NCBI GenBank assembly: GCA_963796455.1
Contig: CAWCLO010000007.1
Location: 160,001-224,000 of the forward strand
DNA: 64,000 nt
Source: Candidatus Sulfomarinibacteraceae bacterium
GTDB taxonomy: Bacteria; Acidobacteriota; Thermoanaerobaculia; Thermoanaerobaculales; Sulfomarinibacteraceae
Reading direction: 5' to 3'
The position numbers were made by a program, and so were the translations under genes. The notes beneath the pieces were generated by a model, which was given only the letters and a program-made list of their open reading frames with translations, was not told where the DNA came from and searched no databases. This document shows positions 2,906-52,988 of this stretch, in pieces. How positions within the stretch are numbered: the stretch's first letter is position 1; each line of letters begins with the position of its first letter.

Positions 2906-3165
2906 CTCTCTTGTCCAGGCCAGAGTCCTGGAAAGCAAACAGGAACAGCGAACAGCACTCACCTCTTTGGGGCTCCGGCCTCAGTGGTGCTGCCGTCTCG
3001 GCCGCACGATGTGCAGGCGAGACGCCTGCACCACCACGACTGTTCCTTCTGTTAAAAGACCTGGAGCAAATCACATCTCCAATTGGACTCCTGATCGCTG
3101 CCGCTGACCTCTGTCGCCGTCGCTGTTCCCTGCCGCTGCTGCTGTTATTTGGACGCGGACTCAGT
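2906..3165 (-). mobile_element. Partial non-autonomous copy (D) of the four-helix-bundle TIR element, REPIN-substituted type
   Basis: Degenerate end ctctcttgtccaggccagagt. Shares acagcgaacagca.tcac.tctt.gggctccggcct, the REPIN, ctgttccttctgt and ttggactcctgatcgctg with copy B (52114-52561). The other terminus is missing. Confidence 0.75.
2984..3034. repeat. REPIN-like doublet of two inverted GTGG-headed hairpins
   Basis: gtggtgctgccgtctcggccgcac-gat-gtgcaggcgagacgcctgcaccac, near-identical to 52254-52308. Confidence 0.8.
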
Positions 3166-11146: not shown

Positions 11147-11299
11147 CTGCCCTGTCGCTACCAACTGTCGCTGCCGCTGTAATTCGGACGCGGACACGGG
11201 CACGGGACAACTGCCAACCGGAAATGCCAAAAACCAACGCGTAAACCCCTTGTTGTCAGTTAGGTAATTGCAAATGGCGATTTGGTTTGGACAGCAGTG
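11147..11299 (-). mobile_element. Left-end fragment (E) of the four-helix-bundle TIR element
   Basis: ctgtcgctgccgctg...aaccggaaatgccaaaaaccaac...tgttgtcag...tttggacagcagtg matches 52429-52561 and the reverse complement of 13914-14047. Confidence 0.8.
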
Positions 11300-11521: not shown

Positions 11522-12694
11522 TCACCAAGAAGTTGAAGCCACAGCGTCGCGGACAACAGCTCGGATCTGCTCCGCGACCCGATCCGGGTGGTAGAAACGC
11601 TGCCACACCTCGCGGCCGCGTTCGGCGAGCCTCTGCGCCGCATCATCATCGGTCAAGAGCCGGGTGACGGCATCCACCCACTCGTCTGCATCTCTTCCTA
11701 CCACCACCGCATTCCGGCCTTCAGCAACCAAGCCGTCGGCAGCCCACGGGTGAAGCACCGCCGGGACACCCGCGGCCATCGCCTCGAGCACCTTCATCGG
11801 CACTCCCGAACCCGAACTCATGGGTGCGATTGCCAACCTGGCGCACGCTAAAAACCGCGCGAGGTCGGGGACATCGGCGTGCACCTCGACCCCCGGTTGC
11901 CGTTCCAGCCGTCGGATGTCCGCCGCGGGCCGGGCGCCGCTGAGGATCCACTTCGCCGCGGGCACCACCGACCGAACGCGAGGCCACACTTCCCGGGCAA
12001 ACCACATGGCGCCCCGGACTGTCGGTCGATATCCGAGATTTCCAGTGAGCACAACCACCTGGTCCCGACCGGACAGGGGAGGCGATACGACATCGCGACC
12101 GGCGACAGGAATGACCCGACCCCGACCATCTGTAACTGATATCCGGTCGAGATCACGGTCCGAGACCGCGACGCTCGCCGATGCGGCACCTGCGAGCTCA
12201 CGTTCTCGCCGATCACAACGAACCGATTCAGACATGTACAGAGCGGCCAGGGGCTGCAGAGCATTCCGCGAGGCCCGATCAAAGTGCAGACCCATGGAGT
12301 CGATCGCGTCGAAAACAATCGGGGTCGATGGTCTTTCGGCCACAACCACATCAGCCGCCCAGCCGCACCGAAGCATTTGAACCACGACCACCTCGGGGTG
12401 CCAGTCGTGAAGCACCGACCTGACGGTGCGTCGGGCCCCTTTTGTTCGATAGAGGCCTTCCTGCAACGGTCGCCCGGTGAAAGCTGCGCACACGAGACCA
12501 AAACCCCTACCAACGGGACTCTGGCCGAAAAATGCCGTCTCGACGTCGATCGGCGCGGCCGCCCGCGATGCCGGGCCCGGGCAGCACAGCATGAGGTCGT
12601 GGTCTCCGAGAGCCGCCAACCACTCGACAGTCCGAACCTGGTTACCGCGCCATGCCGGCATTGGATAGCGGCTGGTGACCAGCAAAACCCGCAT
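11522..12694 (-). CDS. Glycosyltransferase (GT4-like, sugar transferase type)
   Basis: MRVLLVTSRYP N-terminus and GSGVPMKVLEAMAAGVPAV motif. Confidence 0.9.
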   Translation of the reverse strand: MRVLLVTSRYPMPAWRGNQVRTVEWLAALGDHDLMLCCPGPASRAAAPIDVETAFFGQSPVGRGFGLVCAAFTGRPLQEGLYRTKGARRTVRSVLHDWHPEVVVVQMLRCGWAADVVVAERPSTPIVFDAIDSMGLHFDRASRNALQPLAALYMSESVRCDRRERELAGAASASVAVSDRDLDRISVTDGRGRVIPVAGRDVVSPPLSGRDQVVVLTGNLGYRPTVRGAMWFAREVWPRVRSVVPAAKWILSGARPAADIRRLERQPGVEVHADVPDLARFLACARLAIAPMSSGSGVPMKVLEAMAAGVPAVLHPWAADGLVAEGRNAVVVGRDADEWVDAVTRLLTDDDAAQRLAERGREVWQRFYHPDRVAEQIRAVVRDAVASTSW

Positions 12695-13803
12695 CAGGCG
12701 CTGTAGAACTCCGCGATCGCGGACACGACCTCCTCCAACTCGTCGCGCGCGAGCTCCGGAAAGACGGGGAGCGCGAGGACTTCGCGGCTGGCCTCTTCAG
12801 AAACAGGGAAATCGCCTTCGCCATATCCTAGATCCGAAAAACACGGCTGGAGATGCAGCGGCAGCGGATAATAAACCGCGGCGCCGATGCCGCTTTCATT
12901 CAAAAAGGCACGAAGTTCGTCTCTTCGCGGCGCTCGCACCACGAATTGATTGAAGGTGTGGCCGCGGCCGGTTACCGCTTCGGGCAGAACAATCGTAGAA
13001 TCGAGACCGGCGGCACCCATAAGCACTCTGTACTGCTCGGCATTGGCTCGCCGGCCTTCGATCCATCGATCCACGTGCGGCAGTTTGACCCTGAGCACAG
13101 CAGCTTGCAGCGCATCGATGCGGAAATTTCCGCCGACGACCGGGTGCTGGTACGGGCCGGACTGGCCGTGGACCCGGAGTTCGCGAAGGTTGGCGGCCAG
13201 GTCTGCATCTCCCGTCGTGATCAACCCCGCGTCGCCGAAACAACCGATGTTCTTCGACGGGAAGAATGAGAACGCACCCATCAGGCCGATCGATCCAACT
13301 TTCCGCCCGTTGTAGTCCGCGCCCCAGGCCTGCGCACAATCCTCGATTACCGGCACATCTCCCGCCGCCTCGATCACCCCGTCCATGTCCGCCGCCTGGC
13401 CAAAGAGGTGGACGGGAATGACCGCTTTGGTGCGGTCATTCAGCCGCTCGGCGATCTGTTGCGGATTCACGCAGTAGTCGATCGGGTCGACATCGACGAA
13501 GACCGGGCGGGCACCGAGCCTGGTCACCACGCCTGCGGTCGCAAAGAAGGTAAAGGTCGGCAGGATCACCTCGTCGTCGGGGCCGACGCCAACTGCCATC
13601 AACGCCTCGAGCAAAGCATCGGTTCCAGAACTCACGCCGATCGAATGACCGACCCCGAGTGCTGACGAGGCCTCGCGTTCGAATTCCTCCACCTCCGGGC
13701 CGAGGATGAATCGTTGCGAATCACAAACCCGATCGAGCGCCGCACGAAACTCTTCTCGCAGCGGTTGGTATTGGCGGGTCAAATCCAAAAGCGGAACGGC
13801 CAT
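12694..13803 (-). CDS. DegT/DnrJ/EryC1/StrS family aminotransferase
   Basis: SSGTDAL, VHLFGQ, IEDCAQAWG and SFFPSKNIG (PLP lysine) motifs. Confidence 0.95.
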   Translation of the reverse strand: MAVPLLDLTRQYQPLREEFRAALDRVCDSQRFILGPEVEEFEREASSALGVGHSIGVSSGTDALLEALMAVGVGPDDEVILPTFTFFATAGVVTRLGARPVFVDVDPIDYCVNPQQIAERLNDRTKAVIPVHLFGQAADMDGVIEAAGDVPVIEDCAQAWGADYNGRKVGSIGLMGAFSFFPSKNIGCFGDAGLITTGDADLAANLRELRVHGQSGPYQHPVVGGNFRIDALQAAVLRVKLPHVDRWIEGRRANAEQYRVLMGAAGLDSTIVLPEAVTGRGHTFNQFVVRAPRRDELRAFLNESGIGAAVYYPLPLHLQPCFSDLGYGEGDFPVSEEASREVLALPVFPELARDELEEVVSAIAEFYSA

Positions 13804-13846
13804 GTCGAAATCCTCCTACATCGCAGGCGGACACAGGTTACATGGT

Positions 13847-13913
13847 GAATCAGGAATTAGGAATGAGGAATGAAGGAATTGGCGAGAAGGATGCAGGATG
13901 CAGGATGCAGGAT
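13847..13913. repeat. Two stacked heptamer microsatellites, (AGGAATG)n then (CAGGATG)n, left flank of element A
   Basis: gaatcaggaattaggaatgaggaatgaaggaatt (13847-13880) and aggatgcaggatgcaggatgcaggat (13888-13913). Confidence 0.85.
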
Positions 13914-14142
13914 CACTGCTGTCCAAAACAGAATGTCACGAAAAGTTACCCACCTGACAACACGTGGTTTACGGGTTAGTTTATGGCACATCCGGTTGGC
14001 GATTGCCCGTACCCGTTCCCGATCCCGAATTTCAGCGGCAGCGACAGTGTCCAGCGTCAGCGACAGGCAACAGCGAACAGGGACGGCGGTCAGTGTTCAG
14101 CGACGGCGAACAGCGGCAGCAGTCTGGAGTTCATGCGACGAA

Positions 14143-14282
14143 ATGGCCACCTCCGGGTCGTTCAAAGAGAGGGGTAGCCGGTGGGCGGCCGATGTCAAGG
14201 ACAGGCAGGGTGCAGGGCATCCTTGACATCGGCCGCCACACCGGCTTGTGGCAAAGGGCATGAACGACCCGGAGGTGACCAT
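14143..14282 (+). promoter_or_regulatory. Long inverted repeat/hairpin covering the RBS and start codon of the four-helix-bundle gene
   Basis: Arms cacctccgggtcgttca/tgaacgacccggaggtg, agccggtg/caccggct and ggcggccgatgtcaagga/tccttgacatcggccgcc. Confidence 0.85.
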
Positions 14283-14634
14283 GTCCTCAGCCGCCACGAA
14301 CACCAACCTCGTTGCCCACTCGAAGGCCCTCGAAGCGGCAGGAATCGCGATCAAGCTCGTGATGAGGGTTCCGGCTCCGCTGAAATCCATAGCCGATCAG
14401 GTGATCCGGTCGGCAAGTTCGGTCCCTGCGAATCTGGCAGAAGGGCACGGCCGTTTCGGTAGAGACCGGTTGAACCACTGGAGAATCGCCTACGCCTCGG
14501 CCAAAGAGGTCGACAGCCACTTGCAGCTCCTCGCCCACGCCGGGGCGATCAGTGCGACAGCCGCCCGCGACGCGATGAACGCCTTCGATCAAGTCCGTGC
14601 CATGACCTGGCGGTTGTTGAACCCGACGGAGTGA
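14281..14634 (+). CDS. Four helix bundle protein (23S rRNA IVP / TIGR02436 family, Avd-like fold)
   Basis: DQVIRSASSVPANLAEG signature; 117 aa; GGAGG 5 nt upstream of ATG 14281. Confidence 0.9.
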   Translation: MSSAATNTNLVAHSKALEAAGIAIKLVMRVPAPLKSIADQVIRSASSVPANLAEGHGRFGRDRLNHWRIAYASAKEVDSHLQLLAHAGAISATAARDAMNAFDQVRAMTWRLLNPTE

Positions 14635-14781
14635 TCGGTGTTGGCTGGCGCTGTCGCTGTCCCGGCCGCTGGTCGCTGCCGCTGACTCCTGTTTGCTGAC
14701 GCTGTCTGCCGTTCCCCGTCGCTGTCCCTGATCGCTGTCTGAGATGCTGTCTTGGAAAAGAGTGATGCAGGATGCACCTGA

Positions 14782-14809
14782 ATCGTAGTTTCCCCGCGCG
14801 GCGTGTCAA
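14782..14809 (-). promoter_or_regulatory. Putative sigma70 promoter pointing into element A toward the DegT gene
   Basis: Minus strand TTGACA(14809-14804)-16bp-TACGAT(14787-14782). Confidence 0.5.
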
Positions 14810-14832
14810 GGACCGTGTGCGATGAGTCAAGA

Positions 14833-14908
14833 ATCCTGTGACCTGGATCCTGCATCCAGGCGGGCAGGTGCGATTAATTCCTGATTCCTCAATCCTCATT
14901 CCTCATTC
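14833..14908. repeat. Inverted counterparts of the left-flank heptamer arrays
   Basis: atcctgtgacctggatcctgcatcc (14833-14857) and aattcctgattcctcaatcctcattcctcattc (14876-14908). Confidence 0.8.
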
Positions 14909-14959
14909 TCCGTTTGCTAACATGGCTCTGCGACCATTGATCGCAGCAAAGGAGCGCTC

Positions 14960-16288
14960 ATGCACATCTGTGTGGTTGGTACCGGGTATGTGGGTCTGGT
15001 GACCGGAGCCTGTCTTGCCGATTTCGGCAACAACGTCACCTGCGTCGACAAGGACGAGAACAAGATCTCCATGCTGCTCGATGGCCAGATCCCGATCTAC
15101 GAACCCGGCCTCGACACCCTGGTCGAGAAGAACGCACGTGCCGGACGACTTCAGTTCTCGACCGATCTCACACCAGCCGTTGAAAATGCTCTGGCCATTT
15201 TTATTGCCGTCGGGACCCCGCCCAAGGAGGATGGCTCGGCCGATCTCTCCTACGTGGTCCAGGTCGCCGAATCAATCGCCGAAAACCTGAACGGCTACAA
15301 GGTTGTGATCACCAAATCGACGGTGCCCATTGGCACCGGACAGTTGATCGAGGAGATCATCAACAAGACCGCAAGCGGAGATCACCCGTTTTCGGTGGTC
15401 TCGAACCCGGAGTTTCTGCGCGAAGGATCGGCGATCGCCGACTTCATGCGACCAGATCGGGTGGTGATCGGCGCCCGGGACACCCAGGCGGTGGCGATCA
15501 TGAAAGATATCTACTCACCGCTCTATCTTCGGGAAACCCCTTTCGTCATCACCAACGTCGAGTCATCCGAACTCATCAAATACGCATCCAACGCCTTTCT
15601 CGCAACCAAAATCACATTTATCAACGAGGTTGCAGAACTCTGTGACCGCCTCGGTGCGGATGTTCACCATGTGGCCAAGGGCATGGGTCTGGACAAACGC
15701 ATCGGTCCCAAATTTCTCCATCCCGGGCCCGGCTACGGCGGGTCCTGTTTCCCGAAGGACACCCAGGCTCTGACCGAAATCGCCCGCAAGGCCGGCCGCC
15801 CGTTTGAAATCGTCGAGACCGTTGTCGAGGTCAATGAGCGAATAAAAACCAGCGGCATCGCGCGTGTCCGTGAGGCCCTCAACGACCAACTCGAAGGAAA
15901 GGTCGTTGCGGTGCTCGGTCTCAGCTTCAAGCCCGAAACCGACGATATGCGCGACTCAGCGGCAATTCCCCTGATCAACGCGCTGGTGGAAGGCGGGTCG
16001 AGGATCAAGGCTTTTGATCCGGTGGCGATGGACAACGCCCGGCAACTGCTACCCGAAGCCGTCGAGTACTGCGAAGACTCCTACGATGCAATTGCTGGCG
16101 CTGATGCTTTGGTGCTCGTGACGGAGTGGAACCAGTTCCGGTCCCTCGACATGGATCGGGTTCACGCGACGCTCCGCCACCCCCTCGTGATCGACCTGAG
16201 AAACGTTTACAAACCCCACAAAATGCGCGAGCAGGGCTTTGAGTACTTCAGCGTCGGCCGAGCGGCAACAGACCTTCCCATCGAGTGA
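14960..16288 (+). CDS. ugd: UDP-glucose/GDP-mannose dehydrogenase
   Basis: GTGYVGL, SNPEFLREG and GYGGSCFPKD motifs. Confidence 0.96.
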   Translation: MHICVVGTGYVGLVTGACLADFGNNVTCVDKDENKISMLLDGQIPIYEPGLDTLVEKNARAGRLQFSTDLTPAVENALAIFIAVGTPPKEDGSADLSYVVQVAESIAENLNGYKVVITKSTVPIGTGQLIEEIINKTASGDHPFSVVSNPEFLREGSAIADFMRPDRVVIGARDTQAVAIMKDIYSPLYLRETPFVITNVESSELIKYASNAFLATKITFINEVAELCDRLGADVHHVAKGMGLDKRIGPKFLHPGPGYGGSCFPKDTQALTEIARKAGRPFEIVETVVEVNERIKTSGIARVREALNDQLEGKVVAVLGLSFKPETDDMRDSAAIPLINALVEGGSRIKAFDPVAMDNARQLLPEAVEYCEDSYDAIAGADALVLVTEWNQFRSLDMDRVHATLRHPLVIDLRNVYKPHKMREQGFEYFSVGRAATDLPIE

Positions 16289-52113: not shown

Positions 52114-52561
52114 CACTCTTGTCCAAGACAGAGTCTCGGATAGCGAACAGGGACAGCGACAGAGATCAGGAGTCAGCGGCAGCAATCAGTCATCAGCGTC
52201 AGTGATCAGCGGCCGGGACAGCGAACAGCATTCACTTCTTCGGGCTCCGGCCTTTGTGGTGCGGCCGTCTCGGCCGCACGGTGTGCAGGCGAGACGCCTA
52301 CACCACAACCGCTGTTCCTTCTGTAAAACCACCCGGAGGAGGCCACTTCGTCGCTTGGACTCCTGATCGCTGCTGCTGAACACTGATCGCTGAACCCGGT
52401 CGCTGCTCCCTGTCCCTGCCGCTGGACACTGTCGCTGCCGCTGCAATTCGGGATCGGGATCGGGTACGTGCCAACCGCGAACCGGAAATGCCAAAAACCA
52501 ACCCGTAAACCACGTGTTGTCAGGTGGGTAACATCATGACAATCTGTTTTGGACAGCAGTG
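52114..52561 (-). mobile_element. Complete non-autonomous copy (B) of the TIR element, with the ORF replaced by a REPIN
   Basis: TIRs CACTCTTGTCCAAGACAG / CTGTTTTGGACAGCAGTG (15/18). One end is identical (18/18) to element A. AT on both flanks. Confidence 0.85.
52254..52308. repeat. REPIN-like doublet inside element B
   Basis: ttgtggtgcggccgtctcggccgcac-ggt-gtgcaggcgagacgcctacaccacaa. Confidence 0.82.
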
Positions 52562-52577
52562 ATTCAGGATGCAGGAT

Positions 52578-52988
52578 TACTCTTGTCCAGGACAGAGTAT
52601 TCAGACCGTGACCGGGGACAGTGTCAGTGAACAGGAGTCAGCGTCAGAGTTCAGTCGGCAGCGTCAGCGATCAGCGATCAGCGACCGGGACAGCGAACAG
52701 CACTCACATCTTCGGGTTCAACAGCCGCCAGGTCATCGCACGGCCCTGATCGAAGGCATTCATCGCTTCACCGGCTCCGTTCGGGCTGATCGCCCCGGCG
52801 GGGGCGAGGAGCTCCAAGTGGCCGACCACCGGCTACCCCTGCTGGTGAACGACCCGGAGGTGGCCACGCCGTCGCGGAACCTGATCGCTGATCGCTGACG
52901 CTGCCAACTGTCGCTGCCGCTGTTCGCTGTTCCCTGACGCTGGACACTGTCGCTGCCGCTGCAATTCGGGATCGGGATCGGAATCGGG
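52578..52988 (-). mobile_element. Internally deleted copy (C) of the TIR element, tandem to B; far end degenerate (possible remnant to about 53071)
   Basis: Starts TACTCTTGTCCAGGACAG after caggAT. Retains CAGCG tracts, the ORF 3' remnant, half of the hairpin and gcaattcgggatcggga. Confidence 0.8.
52704..52820 (-). pseudogene. 3' remnant of four-helix-bundle gene
   Basis: HLELLAPAGAISPNGAGEAMNAFDQGRAMTWRLLNPKM* is 28/38 identical to the C-terminus of 14281-14634; no start codon. Confidence 0.9.

Follow-up and report, generated by a model that had tools for sequence, protein, structure and literature searches.

A probable transposase-less mobile insertion cassette with IS4-family ends carries a selected hairpin and four-helix-bundle gene in a Sulfomarinibacteraceae genome

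The DNA analysed here, referred to as the window, is a stretch of 64,000 nucleotides (G000:C7:160001-224000) from the genome of a Candidatus Sulfomarinibacteraceae bacterium (G000; ~5.02 Mb in 10 contigs, ~60% G+C, 90.5% complete). Located in the window between a degT-type gene and the UDP-glucose dehydrogenase gene (ugd) is an 851-bp unit (13914-14764) with sharp boundaries. In all probability this unit is a mobile insertion cassette without a transposase, in which a gene for a four-helix-bundle protein and its structured leader are carried on the ends of an insertion sequence (IS) of the IS4 family, and which is likely moved in trans by the DDE transposase of that family. The mechanism by which the cassette has spread is ordinary and known in kind. 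Selection on the gene and its leader hairpin is strong and independent of mobility.

The unit opens with an 18-bp terminal inverted repeat, CACTGCTGTCCAAAACAG (13914-13931; this and all following parts of the unit are given on the forward strand), equivalent to the right end (IRR) of an IS4-family IS, and closes with a repeat whose reverse complement is CACTCTTTTCCAAGACAG (14747-14764), equivalent to the IS left end (IRL). The two repeats are identical at 14 of 18 positions, and the right-end family consensus, CACTCTTGTCCAAGACAGAGTCTC, is similar to the IS left end, CAGTCTTGTCCAAAACCGGATCTC. Inside the left repeat lies a non-coding subterminal region (13932-14031) common to family members (majority fraction ~0.71), followed by a tract of CAGCGN hexamers (14032-14124), a conserved hairpin of ~150 nt (14137-14288), the gene for a 117-aa protein of the PF05635/TIGR02436 family (14281-14634, with an in-frame upstream ATG at 14260 as alternative start) and an inverted NCGCTG tract (14651-14739). 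The two tracts are the 5' and 3' arms of an outer stem (inverted repeats I1, I2, I8, I9 and I11, of which I1 spans 75 nt at 71%), with a mean duplex energy of -107 kcal/mol. Copy-specific compensation between left and right tracts was not found, own-copy pairing being no better than pairing with the tract of another copy (p=0.38); because the tracts are simple repeats, any combination of them pairs. The gene is the only open reading frame (ORF) in the unit with a family match, to PF05635, and a transposase is absent inside the unit; PADLOC gave no match for it.

An initial annotation of this DNA, made from its sequence, had described the imperfect inverted repeats, the CAGCGN tracts, the hairpin and the 117-aa ORF, and all of them were found in place. 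Overlooked at that time were a perfect 9-bp target-site duplication, ATGCAGGAT, identical on the left (13905-13913) and right (14765-14773) of the unit, and the nesting of the unit in a (GGATGCA)n heptamer array within inverted heptamer arrays. The (GGATGCA)n array, the insertion target, occupies 13889-13913, resumes at 14765-14776 and has an inverted partner at 14833-14857 (repeats I5, I10 and D3); it holds the target consensus ATSCWGSAT. Further out, a (GGAATKA)n array (13844-13873) has its own inverted partner at 14875-14911 (I4 and I6), and in total 13844-13913 and 14833-14911 form two layers of inverted heptamer arrays around the unit. The outer (GGAATKA)n arrays are resident promoter-proximal arrays of the degT-ugd spacer and lie outside the cassette.

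The unit belongs to a large family. BLAST of 13800-14950 against its own genome returned 517 high-scoring segment pairs, and coverage above 100 collapses to 2-9 exactly at both unit ends. After merging, these matches amount to 243 loci, 107 kb or 2.1% of the genome, in which the ORF is covered to at least 90% in 65 loci (58 of them intact), partially in 30 and not at all in 148. Terminal repeats with at most three mismatches are present at 255 genomic sites, 99 of L-type and 156 of R-type, and the boundaries are sharp across ~100 left and ~160 right junctions. Adjacent inward-facing termini form 71 pairs, which separate by length into a shorter class of 40 (303-724 bp) and a longer one of 31 (782-887 bp). 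The initial annotation had seen a discrete, proliferated and transposase-less element with defined termini, a description that was borne out by the sharp ends and, with 243 loci, proved an understatement.

Flanking sequences carry the marks of transposition. Outside heptamer arrays, where 20 of the 71 pairs are found, flank identity at k=9 is 0.72 per base, compared with 0.22-0.38 at other k (2-12); inside the arrays a 9-bp duplication cannot be told from a 2-bp one, because 9 = 7 + 2. A palindromic target preference, ATSCWGSAT, is evident in the flanks of the 255 termini: AT directly precedes 183 of them, AT at both -2 and -9 is found in 157, and a third AT at -16 in 122, against backgrounds of 4.8%, 0.25% and 0.03%, respectively. 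Most copies sit in heptamer arrays, since arrays such as (GGATGCT)n remake the AT-N5-AT target in every unit. The youngest copies are true transpositions. Those at C3:36275-37137 and C7:250697-251558 are 98.4% identical, the ORF-less elements at C5:63916 and C8:36527 are 98.1% identical, and in both pairs the flanks are unrelated and each member has a duplication of its own. As to genomic setting, 26 of the 55 intact copies that could be placed on a crude, ORF-based gene map lie between convergent genes, compared with 801 of 3,903 gaps genome-wide, and three intact copies fell within a called ORF on that map.

What enzyme might move such an element? All PF01609 matches in the 25 genomes of the genus were scanned for the cassette end motif, and one congener, G017, carries an autonomous IS of 1,411 bp (G017:C434; locus L042, 1016-2426) whose right end (L042 2409-2426) is CACTGCTGTCCAAAACAG, an 18/18 match to the left repeat of the cassette. 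Its left end is CAGTCTTGTCCAAAACCGGATCTC, also given as CAGTCTTGTCCAAAACCG. The 425-aa transposase of this IS, encoded at L042 1060-2337, matches the IS4-family model NF033592 with 251 bits (cut-off 115), together with DUF4372 and DDE_Tnp_1. Within its transposase clade, which extends over several phyla, CACTGCTGTCC stands at an end in 12 of 18 IS loci, and perfect 9-bp duplications are present in five, in L086 and L102 as printed and in L071, L083 and L084 with the boundary set by eye at CAC. Judged by the IS4Sa row in Table 1 of PMC2266710 (ends CA------T, repeats of 8-10 bp, size 1150-1750 bp), these features fit that subgroup. Mobilisation in trans by an enzyme encoded elsewhere, one of two routes considered in the initial annotation, fits both the IS4-family termini and the 9-bp duplication. 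The G017 IS itself (L042 940-2532) is flanked by two unlike arrays, (AACTCAA)n and (TTCTTAA)n.

Two other candidate parents were rejected. A 498-aa IS of G006 and G004 appeared similar at one site at first, but its ends differ (CTAGCCCGCATATCTCAC), and the sole PF01609 (DDE_Tnp_1) match in the genome under study, C7:290895-292279, belongs to an unrelated IS with ends ACGTGAGCCTCTTGCAAAATTCATG. PF13358 (DDE_3) and PF00078 (RVT_1) have no matches in that genome. Nor was a longer, autonomous version found with these ends: where termini stand more than 1 kb apart (3,694, 4,034 and 4,762 bp), they are unrelated neighbours. The genome's remaining repeats above 1 kb consist of three copies of an IS91-like element, a RAYT/IS200-like pair and paralogous genes of the ordinary kind. 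[quoted passage not shown] The repeats do match a known family; the transposase was found in one congener only, and not in the element's own assembly.

Relatives of the host provide the unoccupied state of the locus. Searched with ugd, 23 of 24 congeners yielded one locus each, with a nucleotide identity of 79-82%. Loci of 19 relatives were examined, and one of them, L032 (G021), was set aside because it is paralogous and more distant. The degT-ugd spacer is empty in all 18 relatives that remain, where the divergent pair is adjacent with 118-312 bp between the genes; presence/absence polymorphism, as predicted beforehand, is thus seen at this site. Across those loci tblastn found the four-helix gene solely at the window's own locus. 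The insertion is lineage-specific, since the orthologous spacers of 18 relatives are without the gene. Synonymous divergence (dS) of ugd from six congeners is 1.16-1.37, compared with a median of 0.35 among the cassette genes within the genome, and this lower value places the expansion after the species splits, yet not in the recent past. Contigs built from DNA reads of four public runs include pieces that span both unit junctions, and a clean empty site was not seen among them; the one long joint, from 13871 to 14876 (one contig, side 25), lies in repeat arrays and is unreliable. The degT-ugd spacers (loci L023-L041; window 13804-14959) contain inverted arrays of 7-8 nt in nearly every relative, just inside the conserved motifs ACAGGGTA and TTTGCTACCAT. 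The repeat unit of these arrays varies by species (GGATTTC, GGAATTA/GGAATGA, GAATTCG), position being conserved and sequence fast-changing.

Why should a gene that travels on borrowed ends stay intact in so many copies? Full-length ORFs are exactly 117 codons long in 58 of 59 cases, the remaining one having a stop, and at least five further gene copies are split by frameshifts. The median pairwise non-synonymous divergence (dN) among cassette genes is 0.056, against the dS of 0.35. Terminal branches of the star-like gene tree sum to 2.62 and internal branches to 0.64, and parsimony counts on the terminal branches (474 synonymous and 236 non-synonymous changes) correspond to an omega of ~0.17, with 0.21 on internal branches. 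Counting singletons only gives a weaker dN/dS (~0.56); the tree-based count was preferred, because a count of singletons misses some of the changes in variable columns. Both end repeats (at most four mismatches) are kept in 30 of the 58 intact-gene copies. Because the other 28 have lost an end, transposition is not what maintains the gene copies, and terminal-branch omega is 0.164 for the 30 copies with both ends and 0.168 for the 28 with a lost end.

Constraint is unevenly distributed over the unit. Conservation is 0.94 for the hairpin and 0.93 for the ORF (0.86 at third positions), compared with 0.71 for the left part and 0.70 for the right tract, and the left subterminal region is cut at varying points in 21 of the 58 intact-ORF copies. 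Selection keeps the hairpin-plus-gene module and not the ends. As it keeps 58 copies intact, the gene likely has a use of its own. Within the protein, omega is 0.05-0.11 in the helices, 0.68 at the N-terminus and 0.49 in residues 85-100. These last residues (window 14533-14580), which cover the helix 3-helix 4 loop together with the first part of helix 4, take forms such as ISATAARDA, ISPNGASEA and VNRNGAGEA, between flanking helices with an omega of 0.05.

The hairpin that leads into the gene is nearly invariant within the genome and has a minimum free energy (MFE) of -102.3 kcal/mol (z -7.7), with 0 of 200 shuffled sequences as stable. Its lower stem pairs CCTCC with the GGAGG at 14271-14275, ahead of the ATG at 14281, and the invariant upstream ATGAAC is also covered; in the predicted fold the lower stem sequesters GGAGG and both candidate start codons. 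Covariation was assessed in 25 sequences from 20 genomes in two families of the order. Of 41 pairs, 21 have changed on both sides, compared with 5.1 in shuffled data (0 of 500 shuffles reach the observed number), and hairpin cells are paired in 96.6% of cases, compared with 26-44% when the partner is slid. The lower-stem pairs 29:28 and 14:43 are A-U/G-U polymorphic on the sense strand and the mirror A-C class is rare, which favours an RNA of the sense strand. No Rfam 15 family matches the hairpin at threshold, the best generic hairpin match reaching 31.5 bits against a gathering score of 168. No sigma-70-type promoter was found on the forward strand of the unit; a TTGACA motif within the hairpin, considered as an internal promoter, was dropped as being without a conserved -10 element.

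In agreement with the initial annotation, which had assigned the gene to the TIGR02436 family, the 117-aa protein scores above the cut-offs of both TIGR02436 (60 bits against 24) and PF05635 (56.9 bits against 33.8). Its AlphaFold2 model (pLDDT 93.8) has four helices. The closest folds are XCC0516 (2gsc; TM score 0.82) and BT_0352 (2rld; 0.83), and the resemblance to Avd of diversity-generating retroelements (DGRs) that had been expected is also found, with TM scores of 0.77 to 4dwl_D and 0.79 to 8ub7_E, from a DGR ribonucleoprotein. The 2gsc and 2rld crystals hold five chains each, and XCC0516 is described as a homopentamer in PMC4990558; by homology, the cassette protein would be a pentameric ring. 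The protein is basic (predicted pI 10.1), and Pfam and NCBIfam show no catalytic motif in the 117-aa helical bundle. Outside any cassette of the family, C10:733007-733321 encodes a second, distant relative with 31% identity.

Ends and contents of the cassette are separable when other genomes are considered. The unit has matches in 20 of 24 congeners and in 4 of 16 genomes of a second family, limited outside G000 and G006 to the core of tract, hairpin and ORF. The same core, at 70-84% nucleotide identity, is enclosed by IS4-type ends in G000 and G006 and by ISL3-type ends in G014, G020, G008 and G017. In G014 the core stands between GGCTCATCCGGAATT ends, in (NAACGTTN)n arrays and with 8-bp NAACGTTN duplications; the flanks of all eight tested cassettes agree with at most two mismatches of 8, and three of the eight are perfect. 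The GGCTCATCCGGAATT end motif occurs 22-46 times in each of G014, G020, G008 and G017 (ISL3-shell termini: 22 in G014 and 46 in G017) and 0 times in G000. Such ends match an ISL3-family IS of 1,303 bp in G017 (L126 948-2250; PF01610 234 bits, NF033550 264.7 bits), which is flanked by GAACGTTT / GAACGTTG. In G021, IS4-type ends enclose 388-bp MITEs with unrelated interiors, and in G040, from another family of the order (L119, G040:C451, 200-1000), the core lies between direct, not inverted, GTSNCC hexamer tracts and has neither shell. A direct repeat of ~59 nt is found on both sides of the G040 core.

Array type tracks shell type in five related, and hence non-independent, genomes, with ATSCWGS heptamers accompanying IS4-type ends and AACGTTNN octamers accompanying ISL3-type ends. 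In this count, G000 has 87 IS4-type termini, 49 matches to three successive ATSCWGS units (x3) and 0 to AACGTTNN x3, and G006 has 39, 90 and 0, respectively. The corresponding numbers are 0, 2 and 280 in G014, 1 (the IS itself), 0 and 205 in G017, and 1, 12 and 51 in G020. For both shell types, the array unit contains the palindromic target of the matching shell. This co-occurrence is a lead, and could mean that arrays let the matching shell spread, or that cycles of insertion and excision build the arrays.

The following scheme would account for the cassette. The transposase would cut at the CAC...GTG ends and insert with a 9-bp stagger, preferably into heptamer arrays, in which each repeat unit would recreate the AT-N5-AT target. 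Its source may have been a copy that has since been lost, that escaped assembly or that was transient. The cargo is a separate module: a basic four-helix-bundle protein is encoded behind a hairpin that, in the predicted fold, masks its ribosome-binding site and start codon, and the inverted CAGCGN tracts on either side could form the long outer stem. The hairpin probably acts in the sense RNA, where it would hold read-through transcripts untranslated, and is a likely binding partner of the protein. The outer stem would allow RNase III to trim the cassette from host transcripts, as in rRNA intervening sequences.

Several observations weigh against a cassette of this kind moved by an IS4-family transposase. 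With the G017 protein or PF01609 as query, the cognate transposase was not found in the element's own genome, an absence that is not established in an assembly 90.5% complete. It is present in just one of 24 congeners, on a 2,977-bp contig of a 740-contig assembly in which mis-binning is possible, and that IS copy is without a target duplication. Homology between cassette and IS is confined to the terminal 18-26 nt, the left subterminal region having no homology to the IS4-family IS past the terminal repeat. Most copies are old, with a median pairwise identity of 84% for long and 78% for short copies, and the 28 intact-gene copies mentioned above lack one or both ends, mostly through truncation of the left part at varying points. 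The RNA-level roles (fold-back control, RNase III trimming and binding of the hairpin by the protein) are proposed from structure and analogy.

Could the elements instead be a domesticated, multi-copy host gene family, in which protein and hairpin RNA serve the cell, for example by binding tandem arrays or structured intergenic RNAs, and the IS ends are fossils of past spread? This is a real, if not the favoured, possibility. Purifying selection is equal on mobile-looking and immobilised copies (0.164 and 0.168), ends decay while hairpin and gene do not, the core is present in 20 of 24 congeners, and the basic protein (pI 10.1) has the fold of the RNA-binding Avd pentamer. However, with ~58 near-identical genes the loss of any single one would be about neutral unless dosage or action in cis counts, the enrichment in convergent gaps (26 of 55 against 801 of 3,903) is what a tolerated parasite predicts, ORF-less derivatives have spread too, and according to PMC4990558 function has been demonstrated for no member of the family. 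Somewhat more doubtful is the idea that what really moves, or behaves selfishly, is the core of hairpin and gene together with its simple-repeat arms. On this view the core would have its own way of moving and would repeatedly have recruited or landed in the ends of unrelated IS, the IS4 ends being just its present vehicle in this species and rRNA intervening sequences being the same unit landed in rRNA. The same core in IS4-type (G000, G006) and ISL3-type ends (G014, G020, G008, G017), the G040 core between direct GTSNCC tracts without either shell, and the G021 MITEs, whose IS4-type ends around unrelated insides make shell and core separable, all speak for it. On the other hand, no junction was found that shows insertion of the core into an empty shell, the core encodes nothing like a nuclease or recombinase, and shells could equally be exchanged by recombination between cassettes in the simple-repeat tracts.

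Two further explanations would give the protein a direct part in the movement, and both are highly improbable. A role of the four-helix protein in catalysing transposition, or as an indispensable cofactor acting in cis for an autonomous element, would agree with its being the product of the sole, highly conserved gene of the unit and with the idea of Ralph and McClelland, quoted in PMC4990558, that the ORF of intervening sequences is a mobility component. The ends, however, belong to an IS that encodes its own DDE enzyme, ORF-less members with the same ends have moved recently (the 98.1% pair), selection on the gene is independent of end integrity, and neither Pfam nor NCBIfam shows a catalytic motif in this helical bundle of 117 aa. 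Least probable of all is an RNA-based retroelement, whose transcript would fold through the inverted ends, be bound by the Avd-like protein and be copied back into DNA by a reverse transcriptase. The protein does have the Avd fold and the whole unit is able to fold on itself, but the genome has no RVT_1 match, a template/variable repeat pair is absent, and the element has the same terminal repeats as a DDE transposon and duplications of a constant 9 bp, features that mark DNA transposition. The RNA-based mechanism that the initial annotation had offered as an alternative to mobilisation in trans is on these grounds not supported, the more so as ORF-less derivatives transposed with the same ends.

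A bolder extension, which we regard as unlikely, is that the core is a self-contained ribonucleoprotein module that hops between unrelated IS ends and is kept for an activity of its own, that the tandem arrays are partly its product, and that the pentameric protein may read periodic repeats. Each cycle of insertion and excision would leave one extra target unit, with cassette and arrays feeding each other; the ISL3 shell would leave 8 bp each time and the IS4 shell 7 bp, its 9 bp being shortened by an AT microhomology of 2 bp. If true, it would account for the ORF-bearing rRNA intervening sequences, a puzzle for 30 years, as well as for the origin of bacterial heptamer and octamer repeats.

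To return to the IS4-ended cassette, the window contains other members of its family and the neighbours of the unit. The initial annotation had put the number of copies in the 64 kb at five, and this count is roughly right, although the copies are heterogeneous, one being full length and the others ORF-less, deleted or fragments. A complete ORF-less member of 448 bp (52114-52561, reverse strand) is flanked by the 9-bp duplication ATCCTGAAT, and where the unit has its large hairpin and gene it has a hairpin of 63 nt; this small hairpin (52247-52311, reverse strand) has an MFE of -42.1 and a z of -4.9. Next to it, a member with a 5'-truncated left end (52578-52988, reverse strand) has an internal deletion from the hairpin to about codon 80. 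A fragment at 2906-3165 (forward strand) consists of one R-type end, tract and a variant of the small hairpin, and a left-end fragment at 11147-11299 (reverse strand) of the repeat, the subterminal region and the start of the tract. The two members meeting at 52561-52578 are arranged head to tail, 16 bp apart, within one heptamer array, and similar junctions of 17 bp are found at C2:76337/76354 and C3:330034/330051. The 63-nt hairpin of the ORF-less short members recurs at about 90 other places in the genome and has 99 BLAST matches, many of them 100% identical over 63 nt, and the elements around these conserved hairpins average just 78% identity. The unit's neighbours are the DegT-type aminotransferase gene (12694-13803, reverse strand) and ugd (14960-16288, forward strand). 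Mobile-element genes elsewhere in the genome, named by reading translations, lie at C4:1143372-1147449, C6:37094-38933, C7:279899-286913 and C7:292689-293780, and comprise two RAYT/IS200-like genes, three IS91-like genes and one IS110-like gene beside the lone IS4/IS5-type element.

In the open-access papers and bioRxiv preprints searched, we found no published description of this cassette and no link of its gene family to IS-derived cassettes. The kind of layout is nevertheless known, contrary to the remark in the initial annotation that no described family has it: IS ends around a passenger gene define the mobile insertion cassettes (MICs), such as MIC231, named in PMC2266710, with IS231 or IS4-family ends (Chen et al. 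1999; De Palmenaer et al. 2004, as cited there). Like these MICs, the present cassette has IS4-family repeats that enclose a passenger gene, no transposase, a target duplication of the length made by the parent, and mobilisation that would be in trans. Unlike them, it has as its passenger an IVS-type four-helix-bundle gene with a conserved structured leader, it is present in very many copies (243 loci, 2.1% of the genome), its passenger is under purifying selection in 58 copies, equally so after loss of ends, the same passenger is found in ISL3-type ends of sister species, and the cognate transposase was not found in the host genome (90.5% complete assembly).

The ORF-less members of 300-580 bp (40 of 71 paired elements) are ordinary MITEs, like those derived from IS in other bacteria. 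Unlike those, the full-length form is protein-coding and the short form carries a highly conserved 63-nt hairpin. Translation of the IS10 and IS50 transposases from read-through transcripts is subject to fold-back inhibition. The leader hairpin resembles this arrangement in that the element's gene has its ribosome-binding site and start codon paired with a segment on the 5' side, and differs in that the controlled gene is not a transposase and no internal promoter was found on the forward strand. With Avd (4dwl; ribonucleoprotein 8ub7) the protein shares a basic four-helix bundle (TM 0.77-0.80, root-mean-square deviation 1.6 A). Unlike Avd, with which its sequence identity is 8-9%, it is not part of a DGR, the genome having no RVT_1 and no template/variable repeats.

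Close parallels to the gene's setting are the ORF-bearing intervening sequences (IVSs) of 23S rRNA, described in PMC4990558 for Coxiella burnetii (S23p IVS) and also for Leptospira, Brucella and Xanthomonas. The four-helix-bundle IVS protein family is very widespread, and from the early 1990s on its location in rRNA intervening sequences has been taken to indicate mobility, though sequences had given no proof. Here cassettes that bear the classic hallmarks of a transposon, and whose parent IS can be identified, carry the same gene, so that the idea of mobility becomes testable. Selection independent of mobility is unexpected for a passive passenger and indicates a genuine activity, likely the binding of RNA as by Avd, while the switch between IS4 and ISL3 shells within one genus and the match of target and array bear on how cassettes spread and on the origin of bacterial heptamer repeats. 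The cassette resembles the rRNA IVSs in its gene family (PF05635/S23p), its length of ~0.4-0.8 kb and its complementary ends that form a long stem, here a predicted one; IVSs, too, are sporadic and horizontally spread, and have long been suspected to be transposon remnants. Unlike them, the unit sits between protein-coding genes and not in rRNA, and by tblastn no cassette gene lies in the 7.2-kb duplicated region C2:1-7218 / C10:770619-777833, a putative rRNA operon. The unit is further distinguished by bona fide IS ends with target duplications. Unlike the Coxiella IVS ORF, which is described in PMC4990558 as decaying and probably untranslated, the gene of the cassette is intact and constrained.

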